In this document: positions 8,460 to 29,683 of the stretch, piece after piece | How positions within the stretch are numbered: position 1 is the stretch's first letter | Layout of the letters: each line of letters opens with the position of its first letter | Assembly: GCA_963976765.1 (NCBI GenBank) | Contig: CAXBME010000002.1 | Location: 248,001 to 312,000, forward strand | Length of the DNA: 64,000 nt | Reading direction: 5' to 3' | Source: an uncultured Planctomycetaceae bacterium | GTDB taxonomy: Bacteria; Planctomycetota; Planctomycetia; Planctomycetales; Planctomycetaceae | Notes under the pieces: model-generated | Told to the model about the DNA's origin: nothing | The model's database searches: none | What the model saw: the letters and a program-made list of their open reading frames with translations, nothing else | Translations under genes and position numbers: made by a program

Positions 8460-8921
8460 TTACTGAACCGTGCTGCCGCTGAGTCGGCGAGACAGTTCAT
8501 TGCGGTGTTGCTCGCGGATTTCGCTGTAGGCTTCAACCAGTGCCCAGGAATCTGTTTCGCGGCTGGCTTCGACCAGTAGTGCCGGCCCACTTGCCGGAGA
8601 CCCCAGAGGGAACTGAGCCATTCTGGCCGGCTCGACCTGAGCCACCGCTTCGGCCTGAGTCGCGTCGTTGCTCGGCCCAAAGACAACCAGCATTGCCGCC
8701 AGCATGAACGAAGCCATCACCGTCAGGCGGCTGGCCAGTTCTCGACCACGGTCAACCCGGTCGAGCTGAATCAGGATTTCGGTTCGCAATCCGGCTCGCG
8801 GATCCGGAGCGTCGTTGCAGAAGTAGATTAATTCTTCTTCGGCGGCGAATTCCCAGTCGGTGGGTTCAAACTCAGGGACTTCAGCCCCCAGTGCCGCGAA
8901 CAATCGTTCGGTTTCAGACAC
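8460..8921 (-). CDS. Putative single-pass membrane anti-sigma factor
   Basis: Overlaps the end of the ECF sigma gene and has one TM helix (LTVMASFMLAAMLVVFG). Confidence 0.55.
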   Translation of the reverse strand: MSETERLFAALGAEVPEFEPTDWEFAAEEELIYFCNDAPDPRAGLRTEILIQLDRVDRGRELASRLTVMASFMLAAMLVVFGPSNDATQAEAVAQVEPARMAQFPLGSPASGPALLVEASRETDSWALVEAYSEIREQHRNELSRRLSGSTVQ

Positions 8922-9606
8922 GACGCACCTCCTGTCGAATGCTTCGGTCCGTTGTCGACTTCGCAGCCGTCAGCGCGTCGGAACTGACATCTCTACTGGC
9001 ATGATCGATCGGCGGCGTTTGAGCCGGCTGGTCGATATCCGCCCTGGCCGAATCGACCAGCGGTTGCAGATGCCGCGAGAGCTTTTCCAGAGCGTAGCGG
9101 TAACGACTGGCGGCGGTGTTAGGCGACTCGCCGATCAGCTCGGCGATTTCAGCAAACGTGAACTGTTCCCAGATCTTCAGGACGACGACTTCCGCCTGCT
9201 CTGCCGGAAGTCTGGCAACCGCCTGCTGGACCTTTTCGCGAGACTCCTGCTGCTCAAGCGGGCACTCGACCGGTCGCCACGCCTGAAGCAGACTCGCCAG
9301 CGACGCAATCGGCTTCCGCCGACCAATCACCTTCAGAGCCTCATTCCGCACCACTCGGACCAGATAAGCCCACGGTTTGTCCGCATTGGCCAGCTGCTTC
9401 GGCTTCCGAGCCACCTTGACCAGAGCCGATTGCACGGCATCCTCAGCGTCCGCCCGATTTCGAGTCAGCGTCTCGGCGTACCTCAACAATCGAGACGCCG
9501 CGACATCGTAAAGCCGACTCAGCGCAGACCGATCGCCCCGCCCGAGGTCAGCCGCAACTGCAGCCACCTCTGTCCAGATCGAAGTTTTCGTCGCCAGATC
9601 GCTCAA
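8914..9606 (-). CDS. ECF RNA polymerase sigma-70 factor
   Basis: Region 2 (DAEDAVQSAL, WAYLVRVVRNEAL) and region 4 (LPAEQAEVVVLKIWEQFTFAEIAELIGESPNTAASRYRYA). Confidence 0.92.
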   Translation of the reverse strand: MSDLATKTSIWTEVAAVAADLGRGDRSALSRLYDVAASRLLRYAETLTRNRADAEDAVQSALVKVARKPKQLANADKPWAYLVRVVRNEALKVIGRRKPIASLASLLQAWRPVECPLEQQESREKVQQAVARLPAEQAEVVVLKIWEQFTFAEIAELIGESPNTAASRYRYALEKLSRHLQPLVDSARADIDQPAQTPPIDHASRDVSSDALTAAKSTTDRSIRQEVRRV

Positions 9607-10241
9607 ATGATGTCTCCAGCTTCGAGGCCGTCGTTGCTGAATTCACAGCCTGCCGCGGGTGGGAATGCTTCATTGACGCATCCGGCCCCCCCGTTTGTCT
9701 ACCGAAACCGCGATTTTATTTGAAAAGATTGAACTGCGTTGGCGCGACACGAGCCAATTCCACTGTCGCACGACAACCCGCCTCGGCGAGCACCCGGATT
9801 TCCGTTGCCCATTTTTGATTTTTTAGTGATCGCACTGACAGGAATTTGTTCAGGACAAAAAGTACACTCACCAAAAAGAGTAAACTCGTCCACAGATCAT
9901 TAACAAACCAGTGAGGGCACTATGACTGATTCTTCAACACTTGTTCGCCACCTGAAACGGTTGCGACAAAGGCCAGCCCCACACCCCGGCAGTTGCGTCA
10001 GTGACGACAAACTGCCGGCTCCGCATCACGGCATGGTTGGAGTAGCGACCGTACTGCACCTCGGTTGCCGTCTTCTGAAGTCTCAGTGCGCGACGGCGCT
10101 GTGGAAACCGGCTCAATCGGCGTTTGTCAAATTGTCGCGGCAATCCAGCCCGCCGGCTCCCAAATACCCAGACCCCCTTGCGACGCCATTTCCTGCACCG
10201 ACTGGTAAGTTGCCGCGCAGAAAACCTCGAACCAGCCGCAC

Positions 10242-10283
10242 AAAAGCCCCACCGCGAGTCTCCACTCACGACGGGGCTTTTTT
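10242..10283 (-). terminator. Intrinsic terminator downstream of the mini-array (possibly bidirectional)
   Basis: Minus-strand RNA AAAAGCCCCGUCGUGAG-UGGAGA-CUCGCGGUGGGGCUUUU pairs fully with three G-U wobbles. On the plus strand these are A-C mismatches, followed by T6. Confidence 0.7.
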
Positions 10284-10307
10284 CGTGCGAGACGGTGAAA
10301 CCGCCTG

Positions 10308-10410
10308 GCATCAATGGGGCCGCGGTTTTGAGGCCGCGGAAAACTCGCCACAAGCGACATCCTCATCTCATCGCCAAGGCTTCAATGGGGCCAGGCCGTG
10401 AACCTGGAAT
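10308..10410 (-). CRISPR. One-spacer CRISPR mini-array (crRNA-like regulatory RNA, CreR/CreA-type)
   Basis: On the minus strand: degenerate repeat ATTCCAGGTTCACGGCCTGGCCCCATTGAAGC (10410-10379), 35-nt spacer (10378-10344), and near-consensus repeat TTTTCCGCGGCCTCAAAACCGCGGCCCCATTGATGC (10343-10308, 34/36 identical to the array repeat). Confidence 0.9.
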
Positions 10411-10519
10411 TGCTGGCAGCCGAGAGCCGTTACATCCCTGAACCCGATTTTCGAACTGGTCGTCCGACATAGCACAGAAAACAAAACAACTCACAAAAAC
10501 TTGCGTCGACAGCTACAGA

Positions 10520-10548
10520 ACAATAACCTGCTTGTATATATTTTTCAA
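10520..10548 (-). promoter_or_regulatory. Candidate sigma70-type promoter for the mini-array
   Basis: TTGAAA (10548-10543), 17 nt, TATTGT (10525-10520) on the minus strand in an AT-rich intergenic region. Confidence 0.4.
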
Positions 10549-10570
10549 TCCTCATTTCATCTCCAAGAAA
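10548..10570 (-). promoter_or_regulatory. Protospacer and PAM targeted by the mini-array spacer
   Basis: Minus strand TTT|CTTGGAGATGAAATGAGGAT versus spacer 5' end CTTGGCGATGAGATGAGGAT: 18/20, with mismatches at positions 6 and 12. Confidence 0.85.
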
Positions 10571-10645
10571 CATGAATAATTCATTCTCCTTGAAACGTCC
10601 TGTATCACAGGGGGCCGTTAAATTCTTCAGACGCGGAGACAAGCG

Positions 10646-11104
10646 ATGACTCAGGACGATTACGTAAAACTGCTGAAAAAGTTTGTGGATGAGGATGCAT
10701 TGCAGCAGGCATGGCTTGAGCTTCAGGCCAGAGATCCCGGTCTTGACCTGCAAAGCATCGATCGTCGGCTCCTCATTGGCCGGGCAAAATTTCGAATTGC
10801 CGATCAACACCGTCGGCGGCGGCGTGCAGGTTACGGCACGCTGGCGTCCCTGCTTAATTTCTCCTCGGACGAGAAGGATCCCGTAGTCTCTTCAGCAATC
10901 GACAAGGAGACAAAGGAAGAAGTACGGCGAGCAGTGGAAACGTTGAGCCCCACGTTTCGGGAAATCGCCATTCTGCTGTGGTTTGACGGACTGACTCCGG
11001 AAGAAGTCGCACTTCGAACTGGATTGAAACGGAAGACTGTTTACACGCGAAGACGACGAGCCGTGCAGCGTCTCCGAACACGCCTGACCACCCGTGGCCT
11101 GTGA
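10646..11104 (+). CDS. Minimal ECF-like sigma-70 family factor, first gene of the cas operon
   Basis: GGAG SD, region-2-like EDALQQAWLEL...RAKFRIADQHRRRRR, and region 4 AVETLSPTFREIAILLWFDGLTPEEVALRTGLKRKTVYTRRRRAVQRLR. Confidence 0.8.
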   Translation: MTQDDYVKLLKKFVDEDALQQAWLELQARDPGLDLQSIDRRLLIGRAKFRIADQHRRRRRAGYGTLASLLNFSSDEKDPVVSSAIDKETKEEVRRAVETLSPTFREIAILLWFDGLTPEEVALRTGLKRKTVYTRRRRAVQRLRTRLTTRGL

Positions 11105-11122
11105 ATACAAAGGAGTCCCCAA

Positions 11123-11329
11123 ATGAATTTGATGGCCCTTCGAGATACGTGGCTGATGTTCCAGCGCGAGCAAGGATGCTCCGTCGATCGGATGCTGTGC
11201 CGCCCCGAGTTACGGGAAGAGTACATCGCAGCCGCCCGCACGGTCTGCGGCTGCAATGACGAGGAAACGATCCTCTGGAACACCGTCAACCTGCGGAAAA
11301 AGAAGACGCTGCCAAGCGTCCTGAAGTAG
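11123..11329 (+). CDS. Small hypothetical protein (68 aa) between the sigma gene and cas3
   Basis: Strong SD (AAGGAG) upstream; tight 18-bp and 36-bp spacing to its neighbours. Confidence 0.75.
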   Translation: MNLMALRDTWLMFQREQGCSVDRMLCRPELREEYIAAARTVCGCNDEETILWNTVNLRKKKTLPSVLK

Positions 11330-11365
11330 CTCTCGGGACGCCAATTACTCGAATGAGAATGCACC

Positions 11366-14017
11366 ATGACGTACGACGAATTCTTTCAAACAGCGCTGGC
11401 TGGCCAGAAGTACGCGCCGCGTGACTGGCAGCGGAAACTGGCAGAGGCCGGTGAACCTCGCAATCGTCTGATTCGCATTCCGACCGGAATGGGTAAGACG
11501 GCTGGCGTGCTGGCCGCCTGGCTCTGGAACGCTGTCAGTGATCAAAGCGGTGGTTCTCGCGAGGTCTGGCCGCGACGACTGGTGTGGTGCCTGCCAATGC
11601 GGGTGCTTGTTGAGCAGACTGCTGATGTTGCGCGGGACCTCGTCCTGCAGGCCGGATTGGAATCGCGGGTCGGCGTGCATTGCCTCATGGGCGGCGTCGA
11701 GTCGGACGAGTGGCATCTTCATCCAGAGAAGCCCGCGATTCTCGTCGGGACTCAGGACATGCTGCTGTCGCGAGCGCTCAATCGCGGTTACGCGTCCGGT
11801 CGGGCGCGGTGGCCGCATGAGTTCGGGTTGCTCAATCACGACTGCCTGTGGGTGATGGATGAAGTGCAGTTGATGGATGTCGGACTGGCGACGTCCGCGC
11901 AGTTGCAGGCGTATCGCGATGAAGAGTCGTCAAAAGGATTACGACCGTGCTTGACCTGGTGGATGAGCGCGACGCTGCAGCCCGAGTGGCTTCGCAGTGT
12001 GGATACGCAGAGCCGCTTCGAGGACTGGTGTCGCGATCCGTGCGTCATCGCGTCTGCTGAGCGAGTCGGCGGTTTATGGGACATTCCCAAACCGCTGGCG
12101 ACGACGTCGATTGAGGCAAAGAACGCCGCAGCCTTTGCGGCGAGGATTCTCGACGAACACGCGGCCATCGAGGCAGGCGAATTCGGACGCGTGACACTCG
12201 TCGTCTGCAACACCGTTGAGCGAGCCTGCCAGACCCATGCGGCACTGCAGAAAGCCGGTCGAACTGAGAATCTGGAGCTGGTTCACAGCCGGTTTCGACC
12301 ACACGAACGCTCGGGCTGGAGCCGCTACCTGAACCGCGACGCCTGCGGTCGCGACGCCGATCGCATCATCGTGGCGACGCAGGTAATCGAAGCCGGAGTT
12401 GATCTGTCCGCCGGATGCCTGGTCACTGAACTCGCTCCCTGGCCGAGCCTTGTGCAGCGTTTCGGACGCTGTGCCCGTTACGGAGGACAGGGGCGAATGC
12501 TCGTCGTGGATCGTGGTCAGAACGAGCAGTCAGCGCGCCCCTACGAGGTGACCACGCTCACCGCCGCCTGGGACGCGCTGCAGCGGCTGGATGATGCGGG
12601 GATCCGGTCGCTCGAAGAGTTTGAAGCGGGGCTCGATGACGAGCAGCGCGGGCTGCTTTATCCCTACTCGCCGAACCATCTGCTGATGCGGGACGAGTTC
12701 GTCGAACTGTTTGACACAACACCGGACCTGACCGGCGCGGACCTCGATATCAGCCGCTTCATCCGGTCGGGTACGGAGCGGGATCTGCAGGTCTTCTGGA
12801 TCGCCGTTCCCAAAGGCGACGCTCCCGACGATCGACTTCAGCCTCGCCGAGATGAACTGTGCAGCGTCCCGTTTCTCGCGGCTCAGGACTGGCTGTGCGG
12901 GAAAAAGTCCGTCGCCGAGCGGGCGTGGATCCGGGACTGGCTGGACGGTCAGTGGGTACCCGTCCGGCGCGAGATGCTGTTGCCTGGACGCGTGATCTGC
13001 GTCGCGGCCGAACGCGGTGGCTATGTTGCGGAAGCGGGATTCGCTCCGCACTCGAAAGTGCCCGTGCCGCCTGTTCCGACCGATCCAGAAATCACGTCGG
13101 ACTCGGTGGAGACGGCTTCCGGCAGGTCGGACAGTCAGCAGGATGACGAGTCGCTCAGCCGCAACGACTGGAAGTCGATCGCCTTTCACAGTCAGGAAGT
13201 CGCCGAAGAGGCCGCGTCCATCTGCTCAGAGCTGCAACTTCCGGACGACGTGTCGGAGCTACTGCAGCTTGCCGCCCGGTGGCACGATCTGGGCAAGTCG
13301 CATCCAGCGTTTCAGGGCATGCTGCGAGACAGAGAAAACGAGCAGCGTCCCGACCGAAGCGACCTCGCCAAAGGACCGGATGCCGCGTGGGAGACCGACC
13401 GCCAGAAGTTCTACACGTACCCCAACGGCTCTGATCAGCGGCGAGGCTTCCGGCACGAACTGGCCAGTGCACTGGCGATGTTCTCCGTGCTGAAGACGTT
13501 TGCGCCGCGACATCCCGCGTTGCTGGGACCGTGGGTCGAGCTGCTCGAATCGCTGTCCCACCCGGTGCCTGACGCTGCTGCGGAAGTCTCGCATCCGGAA
13601 ATTCAACGACTCATCGATTGCTCGGCGGATGACTTCGATCTGCTCGCGTATCTCGTGGCGAGTCATCACGGCAAGGTCCGGGTTGCTCTGCATGCGGCTC
13701 CGGCTGATCAGGACTACCAGCCGACCGATGGCGATCCGCACGGCCTGCCGATCCGCGGTGTTCGCACTGGTGACGTGCTGCCGTCGATCGCGCTGACTCC
13801 CGACGGTCTGCCACTGCCCGAGTTACCGCTCACGCTGGAACCCGCGGCGCTGGGCCTGTCGTTTGAAACCGGAGCAAGCTGGCGAGAGCGGACGCTGAAG
13901 CTCATCGAGCGGCTTGGTCCATCGCGACTGGGATTCCTCGAAGCCGTACTGCGCTCCGCCGACGTCCGGGCCTCCCAAAGGACAACAAGTGACCAGGCAT
14001 TCGAAACGGCGACATGA
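11366..14017 (+). CDS. cas3: Type I-G Cas3 (N-terminal SF2 helicase, C-terminal HD nuclease)
   Basis: PTGMGKT, DEVQ, SAT, ATQVIEAGVD and QRFGRCAR helicase motifs; C-terminal WHDLGK, RHELAS, SHHGK and LRSADVRAS. Confidence 0.95.
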   Translation: MTYDEFFQTALAGQKYAPRDWQRKLAEAGEPRNRLIRIPTGMGKTAGVLAAWLWNAVSDQSGGSREVWPRRLVWCLPMRVLVEQTADVARDLVLQAGLESRVGVHCLMGGVESDEWHLHPEKPAILVGTQDMLLSRALNRGYASGRARWPHEFGLLNHDCLWVMDEVQLMDVGLATSAQLQAYRDEESSKGLRPCLTWWMSATLQPEWLRSVDTQSRFEDWCRDPCVIASAERVGGLWDIPKPLATTSIEAKNAAAFAARILDEHAAIEAGEFGRVTLVVCNTVERACQTHAALQKAGRTENLELVHSRFRPHERSGWSRYLNRDACGRDADRIIVATQVIEAGVDLSAGCLVTELAPWPSLVQRFGRCARYGGQGRMLVVDRGQNEQSARPYEVTTLTAAWDALQRLDDAGIRSLEEFEAGLDDEQRGLLYPYSPNHLLMRDEFVELFDTTPDLTGADLDISRFIRSGTERDLQVFWIAVPKGDAPDDRLQPRRDELCSVPFLAAQDWLCGKKSVAERAWIRDWLDGQWVPVRREMLLPGRVICVAAERGGYVAEAGFAPHSKVPVPPVPTDPEITSDSVETASGRSDSQQDDESLSRNDWKSIAFHSQEVAEEAASICSELQLPDDVSELLQLAARWHDLGKSHPAFQGMLRDRENEQRPDRSDLAKGPDAAWETDRQKFYTYPNGSDQRRGFRHELASALAMFSVLKTFAPRHPALLGPWVELLESLSHPVPDAAAEVSHPEIQRLIDCSADDFDLLAYLVASHHGKVRVALHAAPADQDYQPTDGDPHGLPIRGVRTGDVLPSIALTPDGLPLPELPLTLEPAALGLSFETGASWRERTLKLIERLGPSRLGFLEAVLRSADVRASQRTTSDQAFETAT

Positions 14018-14086
14018 ATCCACGATGGCGCACGACGCGAACCACCAACCGCAATCCAGAACCACCGACCACGATCCAAAAACATC

Positions 14087-14191
14087 GGTCGCGTAGCGAC
14101 CAAATGCCGGTAGCCGGGGGTTTCAACCCTCGGTCAGGGAACATCAATGCCACACATCGATGTTCATCCGGAACGCGTCGCGTAGCGACGC
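14087..14191. repeat. REP-like palindromes left of the Y1 transposase
   Basis: GGTCGCGTAGCGACC, GTAG-CCGGGGGTTTCAACCCTCGG (14110-14133) and GCGTCGCGTAGCGACGC (14175-14191). Confidence 0.85.
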
Positions 14192-14240
14192 CTGATGCTC
14201 ACGACCTCAACGGCGAACGCAACAACATCAGAGAATCACA

Positions 14241-14693
14241 ATGGCCAACACCTACACGAGCCTGCGTTACCACATCGTCTTCAGCACGAAGGAACGCCGT
14301 CCGCTGATCGCCGCGGACATTGAACAGCGAGTGTGGGAATACCTTGGTGGCATCGCCCGACAGAACGGGATGCAGCCACTTCAGGTGGGAGGCATCGAGG
14401 ATCACATCCACATCGTGGTTAGCATTCCACCGACAATGGCGGTGAGCAAAGCCGTGCAACAGATCAAAGGCGGGTCGTCGAAATGGATCCATGAGACGTT
14501 TCTGGACCTCAACGACTTCGCATGGCAGGACGGATACGGAGCGTTTTCCGTCAGCCGGTCTCAGTTATCGACAGTCATCAACTACGCCGCCACGCAACGG
14601 GAGCATCACCGCGAGCGGAATTTTCAGGACGAATATCGATCGATCCTGGAGCGCCACGAAATCGAATACGACGAGCGATACGTCTGGGGCTGA
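14241..14693 (+). mobile_element. tnpA: IS200/IS605-superfamily Y1 (HUH) transposase, REP-associated (RAYT-like), no tnpB
   Basis: YHIVFSTK, DHIH (HUH motif), WQDGYGAFSVS and catalytic Tyr in NYAATQREHH; flanked by GTAG-containing REP hairpins. Confidence 0.9.
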
Positions 14694-14724
14694 CCGGAGA
14701 CCGCGATCAATGACAAATGAGTGC

Positions 14725-14980
14725 GGTCGCGTAGCGACCACATGCCGGTAACCGGGGGTTTCAACCCCCGGGCGTGCGGCAACCCCATCAACGCCATCGG
14801 GTACCCGGAACATTCACGACGCGTCGCGTAGCGACGCATGACAAACACGGATCGCACATGCATCGGCCATTCATCATGCGTCGCTACGCGACGCGTCCAA
14901 CAACCGAATCTCAAACGCGCGCGACACATGCAAACCGGGGGTTGAAACCCCCGGCTACCGGCGGGTTGTCGCTACGCGAC
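14725..14980. repeat. BIME/REPIN-like inverted cluster of REP palindromes
   Basis: Arrangement A-B-B'-A'. A = GTCGCGTAGCGAC..GTAACCGGGGGTTTCAACCCCCGG (14725-14771), B = GACGCGTCGCGTAGCGACGCATGA (~14818-14841), B' is its inverse (~14874-14897), A' = CCGGGGGTTGAAACCCCCGGCTAC..GTCGCTACGCGAC (~14935-14980). Confidence 0.85.
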
Positions 14981-15030
14981 GTGTGCCGATTCATCCGAAC
15001 GTCAATGACGGCACCTGCAAGGACTTCAGC

Positions 15031-17334
15031 ATGACACAACATCTGCATCATCTCCGAGGCTGTGCTCCGGCACCGCTGGCGTTGTATCTGAAGGCAATCG
15101 GCATCCTTCGCCTGATCGCCGAACAGGCCGACCCCGACGCACGCGGCTGGTGGCAGGACGAACATTTCTGCCTGCTCACGAAGCTCGATCGGGGCGAGAT
15201 CGAATCGTTCTTTCTGAATGACTACTCGCCCACACCTTTGCTCGCGCCTTGGAATGGTGGTTCAGGATTCTTCAGAACGTGGGACGCAAAGAGCGGGAAA
15301 CTTCGTAACAGCAAGAATGCCGCAGCGCTTGAATCGCTTCTCGAAACAAACGACCAGCGAGTTATCCAGCTTCGACTAGCAGCAAGTGAGGTCACGACAA
15401 CTCTGCCTGCGTATTGCGTACGCACGGACGTCTCAAAACTTTCGGCGAAGGAACGAAACAAACTGCTTGTCTTACCGGTTGGTGATGGCCCGACATTTCC
15501 GGTCATTCCCAAGGATGACTCTGGAAAACTGCAGGTGCAACGAACACTTCTCCGAATGTCCAGAGAGACTCCTTTCTATAGAAGCGCTCTCGTCGAAGTC
15601 GCGGAGAACATGAAAGGTCCGTGGCTTTGGGGAAGCGCAGGCAATGATGGCAACATCGACTACACCGGTCGATTTTTCGAAAATCTCAATTTGATTCTGA
15701 CGCCAAAGGACGTGGCGAAAAACGAGCGATTGCTGAATTGCTCACTGTTCGAGGAATCCACACACGGACTCCTTACGAACGCGGCGGGAAAAGTCGGACA
15801 ATTCTTTCCGACTGGTGCGGGTGGCCCTAATGTCACAACCGGTCCCGGGACACAGAAAGATACTTGTCTGAATCCTTGGGATTTCGTTCTCATGCTGGAA
15901 GGAGCCGTAGCCTTTAGTTCGAGCACTACGCGTCGTCTGGATCCGACTGCGATTCACCGATCAAGTTCACCATTCGTCGTTCAGTCACACACAGTGCGAA
16001 AGTCCACTGCACTGCACGAAAAAGACGAACGTGGCGAACAATGGATGCCATTGTGGAACAGGCCAGCATGCTTTCCTGATCTTTCTGCGTTAATAGCGGA
16101 GGCGCGATTACAAGTTGGGCGACGACCGGCCAAACGCCCGATAGATGCGGCCCTTTCGATTGCTCGGCTCGGGACTGCGCGAGGGCTTTCAGGGTTCGTT
16201 CGGTACAGTTTCCGAGAACGCAACGGAAGATCGCATCTCGCCGTCCTACTTGGGCGTATCAAGGTCAAACATCGACCCAATGCCACGCTTATTGATAACA
16301 TTGCGCCGTGGCTGGACCAGTTGCAGCGAATGTCACGTGATAAGAATGCTCCAGCACGCTTTGTTCATGCGGAGCAACGACTCGCTGATGCCGTGTTTGC
16401 CGTGCTCACTCACGATGAGACATCGGCACGGTGGCAGGCGGTCCTCGAAGCGGCGGTGGGTATTGAGTCGATTCAGGTTGGTGACACCGCCATCAAAGCC
16501 GGTCCGATTCCGTTCTTGTCGCCGGGCTGGATCAAAGCTGCCGGAACAGGAGACGGCTCGGCGGAATTCCGCCTCGCTCTTGCACTGGGCAGCGCGGCTC
16601 GGGGTTTTCCCAAAGGCCGGCGACCGATTGATTCTGTCCGGCATCACTGGCTGCCGCTCGAACCCGGAGCGTTCCGATTCTCAGTCTCGGACAAGCGATT
16701 GGCGCATGATTCGCGCGTCGTCATCTCCGGTCGCGATCCGGAAGCCGACTGTGCGGCGATCGTGCGACGGCGACTGATCGAAGGCGAACGCGACAGTGCC
16801 CGCTCGCTGCCGCTGAAGGCCGCGTTTGGATGCGACGCCCGGTTGAACGACCTCGCGGCATTGATCAACGGCGAAGTCGATCTCGATCGAGTGCTCACGC
16901 TGGCTCGCGCCTTCATGGCGATCGACTGGAAGAACTGGTCGGGCAAAGAGGTTCATTCAAACCTTCCAACACTACCGTCACGTGACAATCGACCAGTTCC
17001 TGACGATGCCTGGCTCGCGCTGCGACTCGCCTGTCTACCGAGCCTGAAAAAGAGCGGTCAGGCATCCGGCAACGTCGTCTCGAAAGACAACATCACGATC
17101 CCGGCGGAACCATCGCTCGTGTCCCGCCTGCTGTCGGGTGACGGCAGCGAAGCCGTCCGCATTGCCACTCGTCGGCTTGGTGCGTCCGGCATTCGGACAC
17201 CGTTCACGTCGGCGATCACCGATCCCGAAACCGCGCGCCGTTGGGCGGCGGCTCTGGCCTTTCCCATTTCGCTCCACAGTGCTCGTCGCGCTGTGGAGAT
17301 TCTCGTGCCTGACTTCTTTGGAGAGACTCGATGA
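15031..17334 (+). CDS. csx17: Type I-G large subunit Cas8g (Csx17/Cas8u1)
   Basis: LRGCAPAPLALYLKAIG N-terminus, YSPTPLLAPWNGGSGF, NPWDFVLMLEGA and EQWMPLW; position between cas3 and cas7. ATG 15031 is preferred over GTG 14983. Confidence 0.9.
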   Translation: MTQHLHHLRGCAPAPLALYLKAIGILRLIAEQADPDARGWWQDEHFCLLTKLDRGEIESFFLNDYSPTPLLAPWNGGSGFFRTWDAKSGKLRNSKNAAALESLLETNDQRVIQLRLAASEVTTTLPAYCVRTDVSKLSAKERNKLLVLPVGDGPTFPVIPKDDSGKLQVQRTLLRMSRETPFYRSALVEVAENMKGPWLWGSAGNDGNIDYTGRFFENLNLILTPKDVAKNERLLNCSLFEESTHGLLTNAAGKVGQFFPTGAGGPNVTTGPGTQKDTCLNPWDFVLMLEGAVAFSSSTTRRLDPTAIHRSSSPFVVQSHTVRKSTALHEKDERGEQWMPLWNRPACFPDLSALIAEARLQVGRRPAKRPIDAALSIARLGTARGLSGFVRYSFRERNGRSHLAVLLGRIKVKHRPNATLIDNIAPWLDQLQRMSRDKNAPARFVHAEQRLADAVFAVLTHDETSARWQAVLEAAVGIESIQVGDTAIKAGPIPFLSPGWIKAAGTGDGSAEFRLALALGSAARGFPKGRRPIDSVRHHWLPLEPGAFRFSVSDKRLAHDSRVVISGRDPEADCAAIVRRRLIEGERDSARSLPLKAAFGCDARLNDLAALINGEVDLDRVLTLARAFMAIDWKNWSGKEVHSNLPTLPSRDNRPVPDDAWLALRLACLPSLKKSGQASGNVVSKDNITIPAEPSLVSRLLSGDGSEAVRIATRRLGASGIRTPFTSAITDPETARRWAAALAFPISLHSARRAVEILVPDFFGETR

Positions 17335-18341
17335 CCGACCTGTCACCACTCAACGGCGTCAATCGCCTGCTGTTTACCGTCCCGCTGAAGCCCTTGCAGT
17401 CTGATCGCTTTCAACCGACCGGGTTCCCAAATCTCGGAGCCGCCACTTATCAGACGAGCGCCGGTCAAAAGCTGCTCGTTGAGAGCGCTCAGAGCATGGC
17501 CAACCGACTGGAAACCGTCTGCTGGGACACCGTCAACAATCAGCCCGTCGCCGACCTGAAGGGCATCAGCCACGTCACGGTCACGCGTCAGGGAAAATTC
17601 CTGACGGACACGATGCTTGAGGCGCATCGGCTCAACAGTGCGTATCTACTCGAAGGAAAAGACAAAACGTTTCTCACGCGACTCAGTGAAGAACTAGGGG
17701 ATTTCGAAGTGGGGCCGATCGATCGACATCGCTTCGCCCGAACGTTGCTGCGATTCGATGTCGGGAGCCTGATTCATGGCGTGTTTCTCGCGAAAAAGGA
17801 TCTTGCTGGTGGACGACTTCGAATGGCTCGTGCCGTTTCCGCGTTCATTGAAGCGACGGGAGTCCGAGTTGCTGCTTCCGGGGGCGTTAAGAACGACCAT
17901 GTTCATCCTTCAAAGGTAAAAGGCGATTCGAAGAATCACTTCGGCAATATCCCATTCGCCCGGGATGAGTTCACTGCTGATTCGATCGACTGTCACATCA
18001 ACATCGACCTCGCACAGATCCGTGGCTATGGGCTCGATGAGCGTGTTGAGCGGATGCTGATTCTGCTCGCACTTTTCCGTGTTCGCCGGCTGCTGGATGG
18101 CGACCTCCGTCTCCGAACCGCGTGCGATCTAACACCCGTCGATGGTGACTCAATCAGGGCGAGTCGCCCGTCTGGCTTCATGTTGCCATCGTCGAGCGAG
18201 CTCGATGCCTCAGTCGCAGAAGCCATCACCCCGTGTTGCGAATTAATGAGCCATGAGACAATCACTTTTGAAGACAAACTTGAGAAAGCGCAAGACGACA
18301 CGTCCGACGATGACAGTGACGCCAAGACCGACGAGGAATAG
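17331..18341 (+). CDS. csb1: Type I-G Cas7 (Csb1/Cas7u)
   Basis: RFQPTGFPNLG, LLVESAQSMANRLE, EAHRLNS, SGGVKND and LRLRTACDL. Confidence 0.92.
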   Translation: MTDLSPLNGVNRLLFTVPLKPLQSDRFQPTGFPNLGAATYQTSAGQKLLVESAQSMANRLETVCWDTVNNQPVADLKGISHVTVTRQGKFLTDTMLEAHRLNSAYLLEGKDKTFLTRLSEELGDFEVGPIDRHRFARTLLRFDVGSLIHGVFLAKKDLAGGRLRMARAVSAFIEATGVRVAASGGVKNDHVHPSKVKGDSKNHFGNIPFARDEFTADSIDCHINIDLAQIRGYGLDERVERMLILLALFRVRRLLDGDLRLRTACDLTPVDGDSIRASRPSGFMLPSSSELDASVAEAITPCCELMSHETITFEDKLEKAQDDTSDDDSDAKTDEE

Positions 18342-18344
18342 CCG

Positions 18345-20009
18345 ATGCCAACCATCGAACTACGGTTCCCTGGCGGTCGCTATCACGCGACGCCCTGGGG
18401 CCATCACGTCAATGAGGGACAGATCGAATGGCCGCCCTGTCCCTGGCGACTGCTGCGCGCTCTGATCGCGACAGGTTTCGCCACACAGCACTGGCTGGAA
18501 CTGCCAGACGTCGCCCGCTCGCTCATCGAGCGGCTGGCGTCAGTGTTGCCCACGTACGAGCTTCCACCGGCCAGTGCGGCACACAGTCGTCACTATATGC
18601 CGACGGGCGAACTCTCAAAGGGCAGCGAAAAGACGACGCTTGTCTTCGACACCTGGGCCAACGTCGAAGCCGGCCTCCTGAGAGTCCGCTGGGACTGCGA
18701 ACTCGACGACGAGCAGCGTGACTTGTTCACACGACTCGTTGAGTCGCTTGGCTATCTCGGTCGCAGCGAAAGCTGGGTCGAAGGCAGCGTCATCGCAGAC
18801 GATGTCGAACTGGCTACGGGTCGGTTCGCTGTTCCTCATCAGGAAGGCGAACTACGTGGCCCCGAGTGGGAACAGGTCTCGCTGATGGCTGCGGTTCCGG
18901 CTGAACCGTACGCCGCGTGGTCGGAACAACGCGGATCCGACGCACTCAAGGAACACCCTCTGCCGGACGGGAAGAAGAAGCCGAGCAAGGCGCTGCTGAA
19001 GAAACGCGAACAGGCTGTCGCTCCGTATCCGCGCGACCTGATCGAGTGCCTGACGAAAGACACCGTCTGGTGGAAGAAGCAGCACAACTGGAGCCAGCCG
19101 CCCGGTTCACGCCGCGTACTTTATTGGCGCAGAACGAACGCTCTGGTCGTCGCTCCGCCGCGCGATCGCGCCCGACGCAACGGACGCCAGGTCGAACATC
19201 GTGTCGAGGCGATGCTGCTGTCGCTGTCGACTCCCAGTCGCAACTCGTCGGCACTCCCGCACGTGACGCGGACTCTTCCGCAGGCTGAGTTGATGCATCG
19301 GGCTTTGGTCGGTCGCGCTGGACACGGCGGCAGAGTCCACTGCCCGGAACTCACCGGCAAAGACGAACACGGCCAGCCGCTGCGGGAGGGGCATCAGCAC
19401 GCACATGTGCTGCCGCTCGACCTCGACGGCGATCAGCACCTCGATCACGTCCTCGTCTTCACCCGGAGAGCCGACGACGGTGGGATGCTGCTGGGTGAAG
19501 TCGCACAACAGGCCATTGCCGGTCTGAGAAAAACGTGGACCAAAGGCCGTGACGCCGATCTGCAGGTCTCGCTGATCGGACGCGGCACTGTGGATTCACT
19601 CCGTCGCCTGCCCGAGCCGCTCACGTCTGGAATCAACAGTCTGCTGGGCGAGGCCGCTGGCTCGCGTTTCTGGATCAGTGCGACCCCGTTTGTTCCGCCG
19701 CGTTATCTCAAACGCAACGGGAAGAACACGCTGGAGGGGCAGATTGCCGCCGAACTGGCCTCGCGGGGACTCCCGGAGCTGGTCCGTTTCGAACTGCTCA
19801 CCCAGTCAGCCAGTGAGCCCGATCATGAACGAGCAAGGATACTCCGACACCATGTCCGCGTTCGTGGGCATGGCGGCCAGGCTCCCCCGATGGATGCCGG
19901 GTTTGCATTGAAAATCGAACTGGCACGCCCCTGTTCCGGGCCTCTTTTACTGGGCTACGCATCCCACTTCGGCCTGGGGCTGTTTCAAGCGACCGATGAG
20001 CAGATCTGA
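18345..20009 (+). CDS. csb2: Type I-G Csb2 (Cas5-Cas6 fusion, crRNA processing)
   Basis: GRYHATPWG, EWPPCPWRLLRAL, YLGRSESW, WISATPFV and the C-terminal G-rich loop GPLLLGYASHFGLGLF. Confidence 0.93.
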   Translation: MPTIELRFPGGRYHATPWGHHVNEGQIEWPPCPWRLLRALIATGFATQHWLELPDVARSLIERLASVLPTYELPPASAAHSRHYMPTGELSKGSEKTTLVFDTWANVEAGLLRVRWDCELDDEQRDLFTRLVESLGYLGRSESWVEGSVIADDVELATGRFAVPHQEGELRGPEWEQVSLMAAVPAEPYAAWSEQRGSDALKEHPLPDGKKKPSKALLKKREQAVAPYPRDLIECLTKDTVWWKKQHNWSQPPGSRRVLYWRRTNALVVAPPRDRARRNGRQVEHRVEAMLLSLSTPSRNSSALPHVTRTLPQAELMHRALVGRAGHGGRVHCPELTGKDEHGQPLREGHQHAHVLPLDLDGDQHLDHVLVFTRRADDGGMLLGEVAQQAIAGLRKTWTKGRDADLQVSLIGRGTVDSLRRLPEPLTSGINSLLGEAAGSRFWISATPFVPPRYLKRNGKNTLEGQIAAELASRGLPELVRFELLTQSASEPDHERARILRHHVRVRGHGGQAPPMDAGFALKIELARPCSGPLLLGYASHFGLGLFQATDEQI

Positions 20010-20407
20010 GGAAGCTCGCAAACGACTTCGATCAATCTCGTGGTTTCTACCAGCCCAAGTTCTTTGACAATCTGGAAAAAGTTCTTGAGGTTTTCTGTTG
20101 ATCGTGGCAGAGTGGATGTCTGTTTCGTTCTGCCGCTGCCTGGTGGGTATCAGGCAGCGGCGGGATGGTGAAGTCCTGGTCGGAAGCAGTACGCACTCGG
20201 AGGCGGCTGTCGGGCTTTGCGGGATGGAGAAACGTCGCTTCCGAATGAGCCGATTCAACACGCGGCGGCCTGTCAGGAATGCGTCTGGAATAAGTTTCCG
20301 AATCTGATGGTGAAGCTTTTCTGGACTCGTTCTTCGGCAGCCGACCGCTGCCTGTTCGGTTCATTTCGCGGCGGCACATTTCCCGCTCGCTGCTCCGGAA
20401 CCTGACC

Positions 20408-22333
20408 ATGATTTCGCCTCGCGATGTGGCGTCCCTCGACGCTTCACCCTCGTCTCCCTACCGTCCCGACGAGACTCACTTCGATGTGCCGGACCTTATC
20501 CCGGCGCGAATGCTCAACGAGTTCGCCTACTGCCCGCGACTCAGTTATCTCGAATGGGTGCAGAGCGAGTGGGCCGATAATCTGGAAACCGACCAGGGAA
20601 CCTTCGGGCATCGCGTAGTCGACAAGCCGTCGCGTGGAGCCGTTCCCGAAGGAGCCGAGGCAAAGGAGTCCAACAACGAGGAACAGGAGTCGGCGAACGC
20701 AGCATCGAAGCAGGAGCAACCCGCCGCAGAAAGTCCTGGTCCCTCGTCTCCTGACTCTCCAACTACTACCGACCCTCCGCCGTCGATTCACGCTCGGTCG
20801 ATGACGCTGTCCGCGCCGGAAGAAGGACTGATCGCCAGACTTGATCTGCTGGAACTCGACGGCAACTTCGCGACTCCGGTGGACTATAAACGCGGCAAGG
20901 CTCCCGACATTCCCGAAGGAGCTTACGAACCCGAGCGAGTTCAGGTCTGTGCTCAGGCTCTGATCCTGCGAGAAAATGGCTTCGAGGTCACCGAGGGAAT
21001 TCTGTACTTCATCGCGTCCCGTCAGCGAGTCGTCATTCCGATCGATGATGAGCTTGTCGAGCGGACTCGCGAACTGATCAAGCAGTTGCGTTTCACGGCG
21101 GACGAAGGTGTGATTCCTCCGCCGCTTGAAGACAGCCCGAAGTGCCCACGCTGTTCGCTGGTCGGTATCTGTATGCCGGACGAACTGAACTGGCTGAGGA
21201 GGGACGAGGGGCAAGGGCGGAAGGACGAGAGTCAGAAAACGGCGACAAAACCAAACGACTCGAGCGGGCAACTCTCGTTCAACTTTGAGGCAGCATCCGA
21301 AACGAAGACTCCCCGACAACTGCTCGTCACACGCGACAACGCTTTGCCGCTGTATCTGCAGGAGCATGGCCTGTCTCTGGGAAAAACCGGTGAGCAACTG
21401 GCGGTCAAAAAGAAAGGCAGCCTGATTCAGAAGGTGCGGCTGCTGGACGTCTCGCAGGTCTGTCTGTTCGGCAGCATTCACATCACCGAACCGGCCTTGC
21501 GCGAGCTGATCACTCGCGGCGTTCCGGTCTGCCACTTTTCCTACGGCGGCTGGTTCTACGGAATCACCACCGGGCTGGTTCATCGCAACATCGATTTGAG
21601 AATTCGTCAGTACGCGGTGGCGGCTTCGGAGGGCGAGTCGCTGGAATTCGCTCGGCGATTCGTTAGTGGAAAAATCCGAAACTGTCGGACGCTGCTGCGA
21701 CGTCACCTGCAGAGCGATGATCGCGACCGGCTGCTGTTTCAGTTAAATGATCTCATTGGCAAGGCGGAACGCGCCGATTGTGTGGCGAGCCTGCTCGGCT
21801 TCGAAGGGATGGCCGCGAAATCCTACTTCGGCGGATTTTCCAAACTGCTCAAAGGCGGCTCGGCGTTCGACATCAACGGTCGAAACCGTCGCCCGCCTCG
21901 CGATCCAACCAACGCTTTACTGTCATTCGTCTATGCGCTGCTGACGAAAGAACTCACCGTTGCCGCGCAGTCGGTCGGCTTCGATCCGATGCTTGGCTTC
22001 TACCACCGACCTCGCTACGGACGACCGTCACTGGCTCTGGATGTCTGCGAAGAATTTCGTCCGCTGCTGGCCGACTCGACCGTGCTGACACTCATCAACA
22101 ACGGAGAAGTTACCGAGTCCAGCTTCATCAGTCGTGCCGGAGCAGTCGCACTGACAGCAGCCGGCCGGCGAGCCGTCATGGCTGCCTTCGAACGACGCAT
22201 GCAGTCAGAAGTGACTCACCCGCTGTTCGGATACCGGATCAGCTATCGGCGCATTCTTGAAGTGCAGTTGCGACTGCTCGCTCGCACTGTTCTGAAGGAA
22301 CTCGACGAGTACCCGTCGTTCTGCACGCGGTAA
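20408..22333 (+). CDS. cas1: Cas4-Cas1 fusion
   Basis: Cas4 part: YCPR, PVDYKRG, QVCAQ and CPRCSLVGIC Fe-S cysteines. Cas1 part: LLGFEG, RNRRPPRDPTNALLSF, GFYH and LALDVCEEFR. Confidence 0.95.
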   Translation: MISPRDVASLDASPSSPYRPDETHFDVPDLIPARMLNEFAYCPRLSYLEWVQSEWADNLETDQGTFGHRVVDKPSRGAVPEGAEAKESNNEEQESANAASKQEQPAAESPGPSSPDSPTTTDPPPSIHARSMTLSAPEEGLIARLDLLELDGNFATPVDYKRGKAPDIPEGAYEPERVQVCAQALILRENGFEVTEGILYFIASRQRVVIPIDDELVERTRELIKQLRFTADEGVIPPPLEDSPKCPRCSLVGICMPDELNWLRRDEGQGRKDESQKTATKPNDSSGQLSFNFEAASETKTPRQLLVTRDNALPLYLQEHGLSLGKTGEQLAVKKKGSLIQKVRLLDVSQVCLFGSIHITEPALRELITRGVPVCHFSYGGWFYGITTGLVHRNIDLRIRQYAVAASEGESLEFARRFVSGKIRNCRTLLRRHLQSDDRDRLLFQLNDLIGKAERADCVASLLGFEGMAAKSYFGGFSKLLKGGSAFDINGRNRRPPRDPTNALLSFVYALLTKELTVAAQSVGFDPMLGFYHRPRYGRPSLALDVCEEFRPLLADSTVLTLINNGEVTESSFISRAGAVALTAAGRRAVMAAFERRMQSEVTHPLFGYRISYRRILEVQLRLLARTVLKELDEYPSFCTR

Positions 22334-22376
22334 CCCTCGATTCCGGACTTAAGTCACTCAACACGGGACCGTTATC

Positions 22377-22670
22377 ATGAGAACCGTTTACCTGATCGCT
22401 TACGACATTCGTGACCCCAAACGCTGGCGACAGATTTACCGCATCATGTGCGGCGCCGGTGACCCGGTTCAGTACTCTGTCTTCCGCTGCGAGCTGACGG
22501 CTCTGGAACTTCAGCGAATTCAATCGGCGCTCTGGAGTGAGCTGAACCTGAATGAAGATCGCATCATGGTGGTGGACCTTGGCCCGATCGATGGGCGAGG
22601 CGACGGCTGCATCGAGTACTGGGGAAACCCGAAGGTTGAACCTTCCGACCGATCCGCGACAATCATTTGA
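22377..22670 (+). CDS. cas2: CRISPR-associated endonuclease Cas2
   Basis: YLIAYDIRDPKRWR and VQYSVF motifs; 97 aa. Confidence 0.95.
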   Translation: MRTVYLIAYDIRDPKRWRQIYRIMCGAGDPVQYSVFRCELTALELQRIQSALWSELNLNEDRIMVVDLGPIDGRGDGCIEYWGNPKVEPSDRSATII

Positions 22671-22972: not shown

Positions 22973-25900
22973 GTTTCCGCGGCCTCAAAACCGCGGCCCC
23001 ATTGAAGCCGCAACCTGCCACCAAGTCAATTCAAGTCAATTCAAGTCGTTTCCGCGGCCTCAAAACCGCGGCCCCATTGAAGCGAGATTAGAAAGAAGAA
23101 GGAGCAAATAGAAGGCGAAAGCGAGTTTCCGCGGCCTCAAAACCGCGGCCCCATTGAAGCACATCGGAAAAAGGATTTTCCAATGGCAGACGAACTGTTT
23201 CCGCGGCCTCAAAACCGCGGCCCCATTGAAGCCCGCTCCCTACGGCTCGTTTCGGTTCATCGGCCTGGTTTCCGCGGCCTCAAAACCGCGGCCCCATTGA
23301 AGCTTCCAATGCTTCGCAGTACATCTGCAAAGCGTGAGGTTTCCGCGGCCTCAAAACCGCGGCCCCATTGAAGCGGCGATTATCAAAACCGGGCGGCTGT
23401 CCGCGAGTGGTAGTTTCCGCGGCCTCAAAACCGCGGCCCCATTGAAGCGCCTCCCGCATTCTGACGGTGTTCCTGACCATCACCACGTTTCCGCGGCCTC
23501 AAAACCGCGGCCCCATTGAAGCTGTCAGCTTTTCGTCTGGCGGGATCATGTAGCGTTTTGTTTCCGCGGCCTCAAAACCGCGGCCCCATTGAAGCTTGGT
23601 GACTCGGAGCTGATCGTCGTCGTCGTCTCCGGTTTCCGCGGCCTCAAAACCGCGGCCCCATTGAAGCGTTGCTGAGGAGCATCAGGGCGAGATTGCCCAC
23701 AACGTTTCCGCGGCCTCAAAACCGCGGCCCCATTGAAGCAACTTCCAGCTTGGCGTGTTCTCGACCAATCGCACCGTTTCCGCGGCCTCAAAACCGCGGC
23801 CCCATTGAAGCGAGCGACGTTCTGGTTGAGGTCGGGAACCGGCTCGACGGTTTCCGCGGCCTCAAAACCGCGGCCCCATTGAAGCGTGCTTTATCAGGCT
23901 TGTCCACTGAGTGGCAATCGCTGTTTCCGCGGCCTCAAAACCGCGGCCCCATTGAAGCAGGTTGTCGCGCTGTTGTCGCGCTGCGTCGGCGGCGGCGTTT
24001 CCGCGGCCTCAAAACCGCGGCCCCATTGAAGCGTGGCCACTCTGCTGAGGATGGCTCGCCCGCTCCGTTGTTTCCGCGGCCTCAAAACCGCGGCCCCATT
24101 GAAGCTTTGGACCAAATCTTGTGTCTGCCGACACCTGCTCAGTTTCCGCGGCCTCAAAACCGCGGCCCCATTGAAGCACGTCGATCGGCGTTTCGCCAGA
24201 TGCCGGCGGCGGAAGTTTCCGCGGCCTCAAAACCGCGGCCCCATTGAAGCTCGAAAGCACGCCCACTGACGAGAACAGTTTCATCGCGTTTCCGCGGCCT
24301 CAAAACCGCGGCCCCATTGAAGCTCACGGGCGACGAAATAACTGTGCCGGCCAACACCGGTTTCCGCGGCCTCAAAACCGCGGCCCCATTGAAGCGACTA
24401 CCCGGAATTCTACGACTGGATCGCTACGACGTTTCCGCGGCCTCAAAACCGCGGCCCCATTGAAGCCGCACAGCGATGGGACTGAGCTGGCCAACTACTC
24501 GTGTTTCCGCGGCCTCAAAACCGCGGCCCCATTGAAGCGCTGATTCATGACTTCGCGTTCCGTCACGATTTTCTCGTTTCCGCGGCCTCAAAACCGCGGC
24601 CCCATTGAAGCCCCTGAATTCTCGGCAGCCCTTCACCGTGCCAGACATTGTTTCCGCGGCCTCAAAACCGCGGCCCCATTGAAGCACCGACATCAACCGG
24701 CTGATTGCTGCCAGCCAGCTTGTTTCCGCGGCCTCAAAACCGCGGCCCCATTGAAGCTACCGGGCACAGTCCGAGCAGCATTTCGGTTCGCCGTTTCCGC
24801 GGCCTCAAAACCGCGGCCCCATTGAAGCCTGAGAGACGCCGACACAGGATTGATGATCGGCAAGTTTCCGCGGCCTCAAAACCGCGGCCCCATTGAAGCT
24901 GTGAGCGTCCGAGCTCTTTCGCCGCTCCGGACAGGTTTCCGCGGCCTCAAAACCGCGGCCCCATTGAAGCGTCTTGTGCCGATCTGCACCACGGTGCAAA
25001 CTGGCTCGTTTCCGCGGCCTCAAAACCGCGGCCCCATTGAAGCGTGTTCGGTTAAGTCATTGCCAGATTCGAGACCTGGTTTCCGCGGCCTCAAAACCGC
25101 GGCCCCATTGAAGCCACGCTGAAGCCTTCTGGAACTCCATTGCCCGGCTCGTTTCCGCGGCCTCAAAACCGCGGCCCCATTGAAGCCTCAGTTGAGCCAG
25201 AATGCGGCTACACCTAACCAAAGTTTCCGCGGCCTCAAAACCGCGGCCCCATTGAAGCCTGTTGCTTCGTCAGCGTGGTCATACCTGGCTTCAGGTTTCC
25301 GCGGCCTCAAAACCGCGGCCCCATTGAAGCACCATTATCACGGACGAAACATGGACGACATTATCACGTTTCCGCGGCCTCAAAACCGCGGCCCCATTGA
25401 AGCATCGTGTACGCGGCTTCGTCTTCATGGACTACGGTTAGTTTCCGCGGCCTCAAAACCGCGGCCCCATTGAAGCGGCCAGCGTGCTTCGCACGCAGGC
25501 CCAACACGATCGGGTTTCCGCGGCCTCAAAACCGCGGCCCCATTGAAGCACGGACGAAACATGGAAGACATTATCACGGCGGGTAGTTTCCGCGGCCTCA
25601 AAACCGCGGCCCCATTGAAGCGATTATTGGGTCAGAATGGACGAGGAAGGTCCGAGTGTTTCCGCGGCCTCAAAACCGCGGCCCCATTGAAGCCCGCTCT
25701 TCGGCTGTCCTCCCGTTGATCGTGTACGGTTTCCGCGGCCTCAAAACCGCGGCCCCATTGAAGCCCAGTGTCGCTGATCCGGCTGCTGGCTGGGCAAATC
25801 GTTTCCGCGGCCTCAAAACCGCGGCCCCATTGAAGCTTCATGAACAGGTTTGACGGTTTGTTTGCCATTGTGGTTTCCGCGGCCTCAAAACCGCGGCCCC

Positions 25901-28900: not shown

Positions 28901-29683
28901 AATGGTGGGTTGGTGATGTTTCCGCGGCCTCAAAACCGCGGCCCCATTGAAGCTACTCAGAACTATGCGTTGTACGTTCACGAAATTCCGGTTTCCGCGG
29001 CCTCAAAACCGCGGCCCCATTGAAGCTTACTATTGTCGGTCCTGGTGACCGCCACTAAGCCGGTTTCCGCGGCCTCAAAACCGCGGCCCCATTGAAGCGT
29101 CTCCCCAACTTGGGAAGAGCATTTTATATTTTGGCGTTTCCGCGGCCTCAAAACCGCGGCCCCATTGAAGCACGGTCAGAGCCATTCAGACGATCCAATG
29201 GCTGAAACGTTTCCGCGGCCTCAAAACCGCGGCCCCATTGAAGCGCAGTGGTCTGAGATATCGCCTGCTGATCCAGTAACGAGTTTCCGCGGCCTCAAAA
29301 CCGCGGCCCCATTGAAGCAGCCTGGCGGCGATGGGCAATCCTCACGCGGACGTGTTTCCGCGGCCTCAAAACCGCGGCCCCATTGAAGCGACATCCGACG
29401 ATTCGACGTCTGACACTTCTGATACGTGTTTCCGCGGCCTCAAAACCGCGGCCCCATTGAAGCACGCCCAACAGCAGTCACAGTGACCGTCCGCCCTGTG
29501 GTTTCCGCGGCCTCAAAACCGCGGCCCCATTGAAGCGTCACTTGGAATTGCATTGCTGAGTCCCTTGAGTCGTTGTTTCCGCGGCCTAAAAACCGCGGCC
29601 CCATTGAAGCTTGTCCGTCGAGGCGCAACCGACGTTGACTTTTCCGCGTTTCCGCGGCCTCAAAACCGCGGCCCCATTGAAGC
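22973..29683 (+). CRISPR. Type I-G CRISPR array, 93 repeats / 92 spacers (manual count)
   Basis: 36-bp repeat GTTTCCGCGGCCTCAAAACCGCGGCCCCATTGAAGC with spacers of about 34-41 nt. The penultimate repeat (29575) has one C>A change. The 3' ATTGAAGC handle indicates + orientation. Confidence 0.99.

Follow-up and report, generated by a model that had tools for sequence, protein, structure and literature searches.

A conserved sigma factor-ORF68 cassette at the head of type I-G cas operons in planctomycetes, with a predicted guide RNA target beside its promoter

In a 64,000-nt stretch of planctomycete DNA (the window), a minimal ECF-type sigma factor gene and a 68-aa open reading frame (ORF68) precede the cas genes belonging to a type I-G CRISPR locus, and the guide of a nearby CRISPR-like mini-array pairs with their promoter region. 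Judged by its recurrence across sequenced loci, this cassette is real and conserved. The arrangement is read here, with slightly better than even confidence, as a Cascade-gated positive-feedback switch of the cas operon, in which guide-loaded Cascade would restrain a self-amplifying sigma factor in place of an anti-sigma. Braking by RNA is already known from CreR, and the sigma wiring is absent from the literature searched. Visible in the sequence itself are a mini-array with its target and PAM, the order of the genes, and three elements that resemble promoters; the functional steps are inferred.

The sigma gene (10646-11104, + strand; 152 aa) is separated by 18 bp from ORF68 (11123-11329, +), which is preceded by an AAAGGAG ribosome-binding site 7 nt 5' of its ATG and followed after 36 bp by cas3g (11366-14017, +; TIGR02621); these coordinates agree with the two ORFs, gaps, and Shine-Dalgarno sequence given in a preliminary description of this DNA. 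A complete type I-G locus lies 3' of ORF68, in which cas3g is followed by an IS200-family transposase gene (14241-14693, +), the I-G Cascade genes cas8g1/csx17, cas7g, and csb2 (14983-20009, +; profile matches), cas4g/cas1g and cas2 (20408-22670, +; profile matches), and a main CRISPR array of 93 repeats (22973-29683, +). The genes between 8460 and 22670 are those of a type I-G locus and do not make up the set required of type III-E (Cas7-11, the Csx29 protease, and the Csx30 anti-sigma). The IS200 element (14018-15030) has flanking inverted repeats and lies inside the cas operon; because it separates cas3g from cas8g, read-through into the Cascade genes is not assured. Elsewhere, IS200 copies are found immediately 3' of ORF68 (locus L001) and an IS200 fragment upstream (L005). 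The 398-bp gap ahead of cas4/1 (20010-20407) holds a TTGACA hexamer, possibly a separate promoter for the adaptation genes. Main-array spacers compared with their own genome gave matches of 16-21 nt only, none of them repeated.

The two-repeat mini-array is divergent from, and upstream of, the sigma-ORF68-cas operon. It comprises an upstream degenerate repeat (10379-10414, −; 18/36 identical, 8-nt handle intact), a 35-nt guide or spacer (10344-10378, −), and a downstream repeat that would form the 3' hairpin of the guide RNA (10308-10343, −; 34/36 identical to the main CRISPR repeat). A hairpin with T-runs on both sides (10242-10283, −), indicated by sequence and RNA folding and conserved in L022, is the likely terminator. 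The guide target and its TTT PAM occupy 10548-10570 (−), where the guide pairs over 20 nt (10548-10567) with mismatches at positions 6 and 12 only. This is the best site in the genome; 23 genomic sites share the 11-nt seed of the guide, and the second best pairs over 13 nt. In Cascade, every sixth base stays unpaired, and short guide pairing leads to repression without cutting. The mini-array has the marks of a CreR/crlRNA, namely a first repeat that keeps its handle, a hairpin-forming second repeat, and a partial, PAM-flanked match to a cas promoter. A TTN PAM and an 8-nt handle are the norm for type I-G (10.1101/2022.08.08.503147), and repression without cutting by short pairing is stated in the CreR preprint (10.1101/2023.03.10.532045).

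When guides were compared with promoter regions in a search that demanded the seed and TT, a match to the locus's own promoter region was found at 29/29 tested loci and in none of the cross-locus controls (0/808). Since guides differ from locus to locus, guide and target covary. The own-promoter matches cover 12-15 of 15 scored positions, taking the best of 1-3 repeat candidates per locus; per-position matches fall to 6/29, 5/29, and 5/29 at positions 6, 12, and 18, and fade after position 17. The tested set includes the window and L062; left aside were L013 and L032, which lack upstream DNA, and the sigma-less L017 and L019. Another guide scan demanded neither seed nor TT. These counts argue for guide control of the sigma-cas promoter, as had been proposed from the window sequence.

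Three predicted promoters surround the target. P1, a predicted housekeeping-type promoter of the sigma-ORF68-cas operon (10501-10529, +), has its −35 at 10501-10506 and, after 17 bp, its −10 at 10524-10529. It overlaps, around the guide target, a predicted housekeeping-type mini-array promoter (10520-10548, −) whose −35 touches the target. In intervals picked after the sequences had been viewed, the P1 position recurs in 15/29 loci (shuffled mean 0.7) and that of the mini-array promoter in 25/29 (shuffled mean 1.0). P2, a predicted ECF promoter of the form TGAATAAT-N15-CGTC (10573-10599, +), begins 2 bp from the PAM. A CGT −10 box and positive autoregulation typify ECF sigma factors (PMC8103513); predicted P2 has the bipartite layout and the CGT box, and its −35 reads AAT, not AAC. 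A matrix built from six other loci, with the window and its nearest relative left out, placed 10573 ahead of every other position in the window, and within the best 25 of 17.1 million positions genome-wide.

Similar elements at other loci follow the sigma clades. Under motif rules drawn up after the sequences were viewed, and among related loci that share ancestry, motif A occurs in 7/12 window-clade loci and 0/19 others, motif B in 5/8 clade-B loci and 0/23 others, and motif C in three loci, after which it was recovered in the held-out locus L126, whose sigma is nearest clade C. A de novo motif search separated clearly from shuffles for clade B (14.2 vs 10.2-10.8), slightly for clade A (10.6 vs 9.0-9.9) and clade C (11.2 vs 9.3-10.2), and not for clade D. 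Additionally, sigma similarity correlates with promoter similarity (Mantel rho 0.22, p 0.0005, 30 loci; upstream control 0.08, 27 loci). The suggestion that guide-loaded Cascade may stand in for an anti-sigma gains support from the predicted ECF-type promoter, which lies next to the PAM and varies together with the sigma clade. The conserved cognate promoter also makes it less likely, as far as sequence can tell, that the sigma factor is itself a toxin, an alternative raised in the preliminary description.

For the protein encoded by the sigma gene, Pfam returned matches to region 4 only (3.6e-08) and none to Sigma70_r2, and the protein exceeds the TIGR02937 sigma70-ECF cut-off (50.3 vs 42.9 bits). 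The best PDB matches of its AlphaFold model (pLDDT 86) are the ECF sigmas SigL, SigH, and sigmaE (E 1e-4 to 8e-4). TIGR02937, the model, and the PDB matches together indicate the ECF architecture of sigma2 and sigma4 domains only, joined by a short linker. Region 2.1 is shortened, with a D-A-L-Q motif and acidic patch retained (DEDA-L-Q in the window protein); the acidic core-binding motif of region 2.2 is present, its DxxQ being altered in many relatives; and the region 2.3 tryptophan is absent from the window sigma. These results bear out the earlier assignment of an ECF-like sigma with shortened region 2 and intact region 4. The gene is under purifying selection (dN/dS 0.23-0.29 in 4/8 pairs, those with estimable dS), and beyond two close relatives the cassette sigmas share only 13-39% identity. 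A quick tree drawn from cassette sigmas (28) and genome sigmas (59) yielded five groups with an open backbone.

No membrane anti-sigma partner was found beside the cassette sigma. ORF68 is without a hydrophobic segment (max 0.26), and the sole nearby ORF with one (8460-8921, −; 153 aa; max 1.93) follows an ordinary divergent ECF gene (8914-9606, −), in line with the previously noted absence of an adjacent membrane anti-sigma. Among the 40 loci retrieved with ORF68, this divergent ECF and its neighbour occur only in L021, an identical copy of the window locus. With similarity confined to region 4 and no counterpart at other loci, the pair was rejected as part of the cassette.

One rival reading has plain CreR autorepression of the cas genes, with the sigma gene and ORF68 as passengers in a cargo slot. 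Profile scans with an ORF68 alignment gave the 40 loci, of which two were discarded as false matches (L020 and L040), one is the identical copy, and six are duplicates, leaving 31; named records among these are planctomycetes, a few unclassified ones apart. A sigma-family ORF lies directly upstream of ORF68 in 27/31, and the other four comprise a frameshifted sigma (L008), a candidate without a family match (L033), and two loci with no sigma (L017 and L019). I-G cas genes, in several variants, are found in 23/23 loci having downstream DNA, the other eight ending too soon. These counts (27/31, 23/23, and, for the mini-array match, 29/29) bear on the co-occurrence of mini-array, sigma, small ORF, and I-G cas3 asked about in the preliminary description, and support the link to cas loci. 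The passenger reading draws on the cargo hotspots described behind mini-arrays (10.1101/2023.03.03.530964) and on the absence of the cassette from most I-G loci, but gene order is fixed over the 31 loci, a clade-specific promoter adjoins the target, and both genes are under purifying selection (for ORF68, dN/dS 0.10-0.33 in 4/7 pairs, those with estimable dS); it is considered very improbable.

The cassette is a minority feature among I-G loci. For instance, cas3g is present in 48/401 genomes of the phylum and a close ORF68 relative in three of the same 401, and among 30 cas3g loci inspected with 1.5-kb flanks, where cas3g is not always the first gene, three have ORF68 and three a matching mini-array, the window counted. 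The cassette also moves between cas operons: the window (10200-11330) and L022 (4560-5667) are about 77-82% alike across the cassette (sigma 79%), whereas their Cas3 proteins are 34% identical. Some loci appear to be in decay: in L008 (6472-6932), the sigma is frameshifted and the guide match is the weakest seen, and L017, L019, and L081 have a broken ORF68, no sigma, and no matching mini-array. HTH-WYL-WCX regulators are often encoded just upstream of the mini-array (L003, L009, L014, L019, L022, and L035).

The preliminary description had also proposed that the sigma factor turns on a regulon elsewhere, such as backup defence or dormancy genes. The ECF-type fold and promoter would suit such a role, and CASP-sigma has predicted targets both inside and outside its own locus (PMC10028731). 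However, a genome-wide scan for P2, itself weak, placed the cassette's own promoter on top while its matches were intergenic at the background rate (62/617 vs 10.6% non-coding sequence); five of the best 24 sites are intergenic, the own promoter being one of them. Within the locus, a matrix scan found no strong P2-like site ahead of cas8g, cas4/1, or the leader, and no sequence is common to the sigma promoter and the gaps before these three. Movement of the cassette between cas operons also argues against a distant regulon, which is regarded as improbable.

ORF68 has 45 clusters of close relatives, 58-87% identical, and belongs to no named family. Its model is a confident four-helix fold (pLDDT 90.5). 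Foldseek returned nothing at E<=0.001, and the best solved match was VIA Z 6.5; in an atlas comparison, ORF68 reached TM 0.67 to a Myb_DNA-bind_3 cluster. With no clear match among solved folds, ORF68 bears a weak resemblance to Myb/winged-helix folds, a hint that it may bind DNA. The ORF68 domain also occurs with TIR domains, and GIY-YIG nucleases and N6/N4 methylases contain it as tandem copies (L078 5793-6761, L079 5783-7696, L080 1662-4156). Some of these nucleases have signal-peptide-like N-termini, and in L080 nuclease and methylase are adjacent as a pair. Among 95 candidate stretches, no ORF68 in a viral contig was confirmed.

A class-wide search found ORF68 relatives in 29/401 genomes. 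The 27 loci obtained from it include six with a sigma gene, two with a WYL-type neighbour, and 19 that are distant and sigma-less; in L122 (6472-7488), an HTH-WYL-WCX regulator occupies the place of the sigma. Thirteen sigma-less loci were extended, and nine lie at cas genes (eight I-G, one I-C), the other four being without cas genes among the ORFs scanned. As ORF68 thus also precedes cas genes without any sigma, ORF68 is, on this sequence evidence, the constant Cas-linked part, and the sigma its partner in one branch. A guide target lies 23-40 nt before ORF68 at two of the 13 (L114, 15/15; L116, 14/15), with none at ten and one further match lacking a TTN PAM. The sigma-less ORF68 genes of L112, L113, L117, and L118 have in common an element of GAACT and CGGAAC blocks lying about 20-60 nt ahead of them, which could be a site for ORF68 or an ECF promoter. 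HerA-like ATPase genes lie beside distant relatives (upstream in L111, L112, L113, L123, and L124, downstream in L120), five of them followed by cas4g/1g.

This distribution bears on a further reading of ORF68, as the sigma's soluble anti-sigma or co-factor. Within the close family it always follows the sigma directly (27/27 within 67 nt, 11 overlapping), and one sigma-ORF68 fusion protein (P0198) was found, on a single contig where a sequence error is possible. ORF68 is nevertheless conserved while the sigma diverges, and at some loci it has no sigma beside it or a WYL gene takes the sigma's place, so such a partnership is judged quite improbable.

Alternatively, ORF68 could be a growth-arrest toxin that is freed when Cascade fails and amplified by the sigma, a CreTA-type safeguard in protein form that would be compatible with the switch as an addition to it. 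ORF68 is far more conserved than the sigma (58-87% vs 13-39%), which suggests a conserved host target; it stands immediately behind a guide target without a sigma in L114 and L116; loci with a decayed ORF68 (L017, L019, and L081) have neither sigma nor matching mini-array; and DevI offers a precedent (10.1101/2023.07.26.550624). At the I-G locus L057 (4410-4730, −), the slot taken elsewhere by sigma and ORF68 lies behind a mini-array (13/15 match, TTC PAM) and holds a 106-aa ORF for an HNH nuclease, a candidate CRISPR-repressed toxin. However, ORF68 matched nothing in searches of toxin families and PADLOC, 4/13 sigma-less distant relatives have no cas genes among scanned neighbours and 10/13 no guide target, and the ORF68 domain doubles as a tandem module of nucleases and DNA methylases. 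A toxin role is accordingly given a minority chance.

Under the favoured Cascade-gated switch, the mini-array RNA would be cut by Csb2 and loaded onto I-G Cascade, which, by pairing over 17-20 nt, would occupy 10548-10570 without cutting. There it would block P1 transcripts, cover the −35 side of P2, and damp the mini-array promoter. Were Cascade inhibited or titrated, P1 would leak, sigma would be made, and P2 would fire, amplifying sigma, ORF68, and the cas genes until newly made Cascade shut the loop, giving a pulse. ORF68, probably DNA-binding, would be co-induced with sigma and the cas genes. Counting against this switch are the sigma's missing Pfam region-2 match and region 2.3 tryptophan, the altered DxxQ of many relatives, the post hoc motif rules and shared ancestry of the loci, the IS200 between cas3g and cas8g, and the recurrence of P1 in only 15/29 loci. 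Of the interpretation first put forward, the cas linkage, guide control, and anti-sigma substitute are supported, whereas the sigma regulon elsewhere is not and the sigma-toxin is less likely. More tentatively, at somewhat under even confidence, the RNA-guided anti-sigma substitute may convert anti-CRISPR attack into a self-amplifying, self-ending cas burst with an ORF68 effector that halts or reprograms the cell, the clades providing orthogonal sigma-promoter sets. Known CreR circuits act as simple brakes; the addition of an autoregulated sigma would make for a switch or a pulse responsive to loss of Cascade. If true, Cascade gating would be a new way to control an ECF sigma, and the planctomycete locus would amount to an alarm, predicted to reset itself, against the CRISPR inhibitors of viruses. 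ORF68 adds a new Cas-associated small protein family, and several compact sigma-promoter-guide sets are open to direct testing in reporters.

Literature searches, in which subscription journals were thinly covered, returned no paper describing a cas-operon sigma factor under repression by a guide. In CreR/crlRNA mini-arrays (10.1101/2023.03.10.532045; 10.1101/2023.03.03.530964), as here, two degenerate repeats, the handle in the first, accompany a partial PAM-flanked match to the cas promoter. For other subtypes, autorepression guided by CreR has been shown, as has its relief by Acrs and by competing crRNAs, and I-U (I-G) examples are mentioned (10.1101/2023.03.10.532045). The first controlled gene here is instead a sigma factor with its own predicted promoter beside the PAM; the word "sigma" is absent from the main texts of both preprints, whose supplements may list such loci. 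CreTA/CreP (10.1101/2024.01.05.574328) and CRISPR-supervised defence (10.1101/2024.12.27.630466) likewise place Cascade-repressed, anti-CRISPR-released cargo in the cas locus. That cargo is a toxin or a defence system, and term searches of the available text found no sigma factor, I-G, or planctomycete there; "sigma" is absent from the searchable text of 10.1101/2024.12.27.630466 and 10.1101/2024.10.29.618823 and occurs only in a vendor name in that of 10.1101/2024.01.05.574328.

Other systems share the sigma factor or the small protein. Type III-E CASP-sigma/Csx30 (PMC10028731) has an ECF sigma that is encoded in a CRISPR locus and predicted to autoregulate the genes there positively, but its control comes from a protein anti-sigma that an RNA-activated protease cleaves, and not from Cascade on DNA. 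In Myxococcus xanthus, DdvS/DdvA (PMC6061681) drives a cas operon with an ECF sigma, but with a membrane anti-sigma, in type III-B, and without guide RNA control. In the devI/DevTRS system of the same species (10.1101/2023.07.26.550624), a small protein is first in a type I cas operon and held down by Cascade subunits; DevI, inhibitory when overproduced, has 40 aa and no sigma, and is likened to ORF68 by position and control. Finally, dCas12f-sigmaE (PMC12259091, PMC13472631) joins an RNA guide and an ECF sigma in one circuit, although in that case activation comes about through recruitment of the sigma by the guide complex, whereas here Cascade is predicted to block it.
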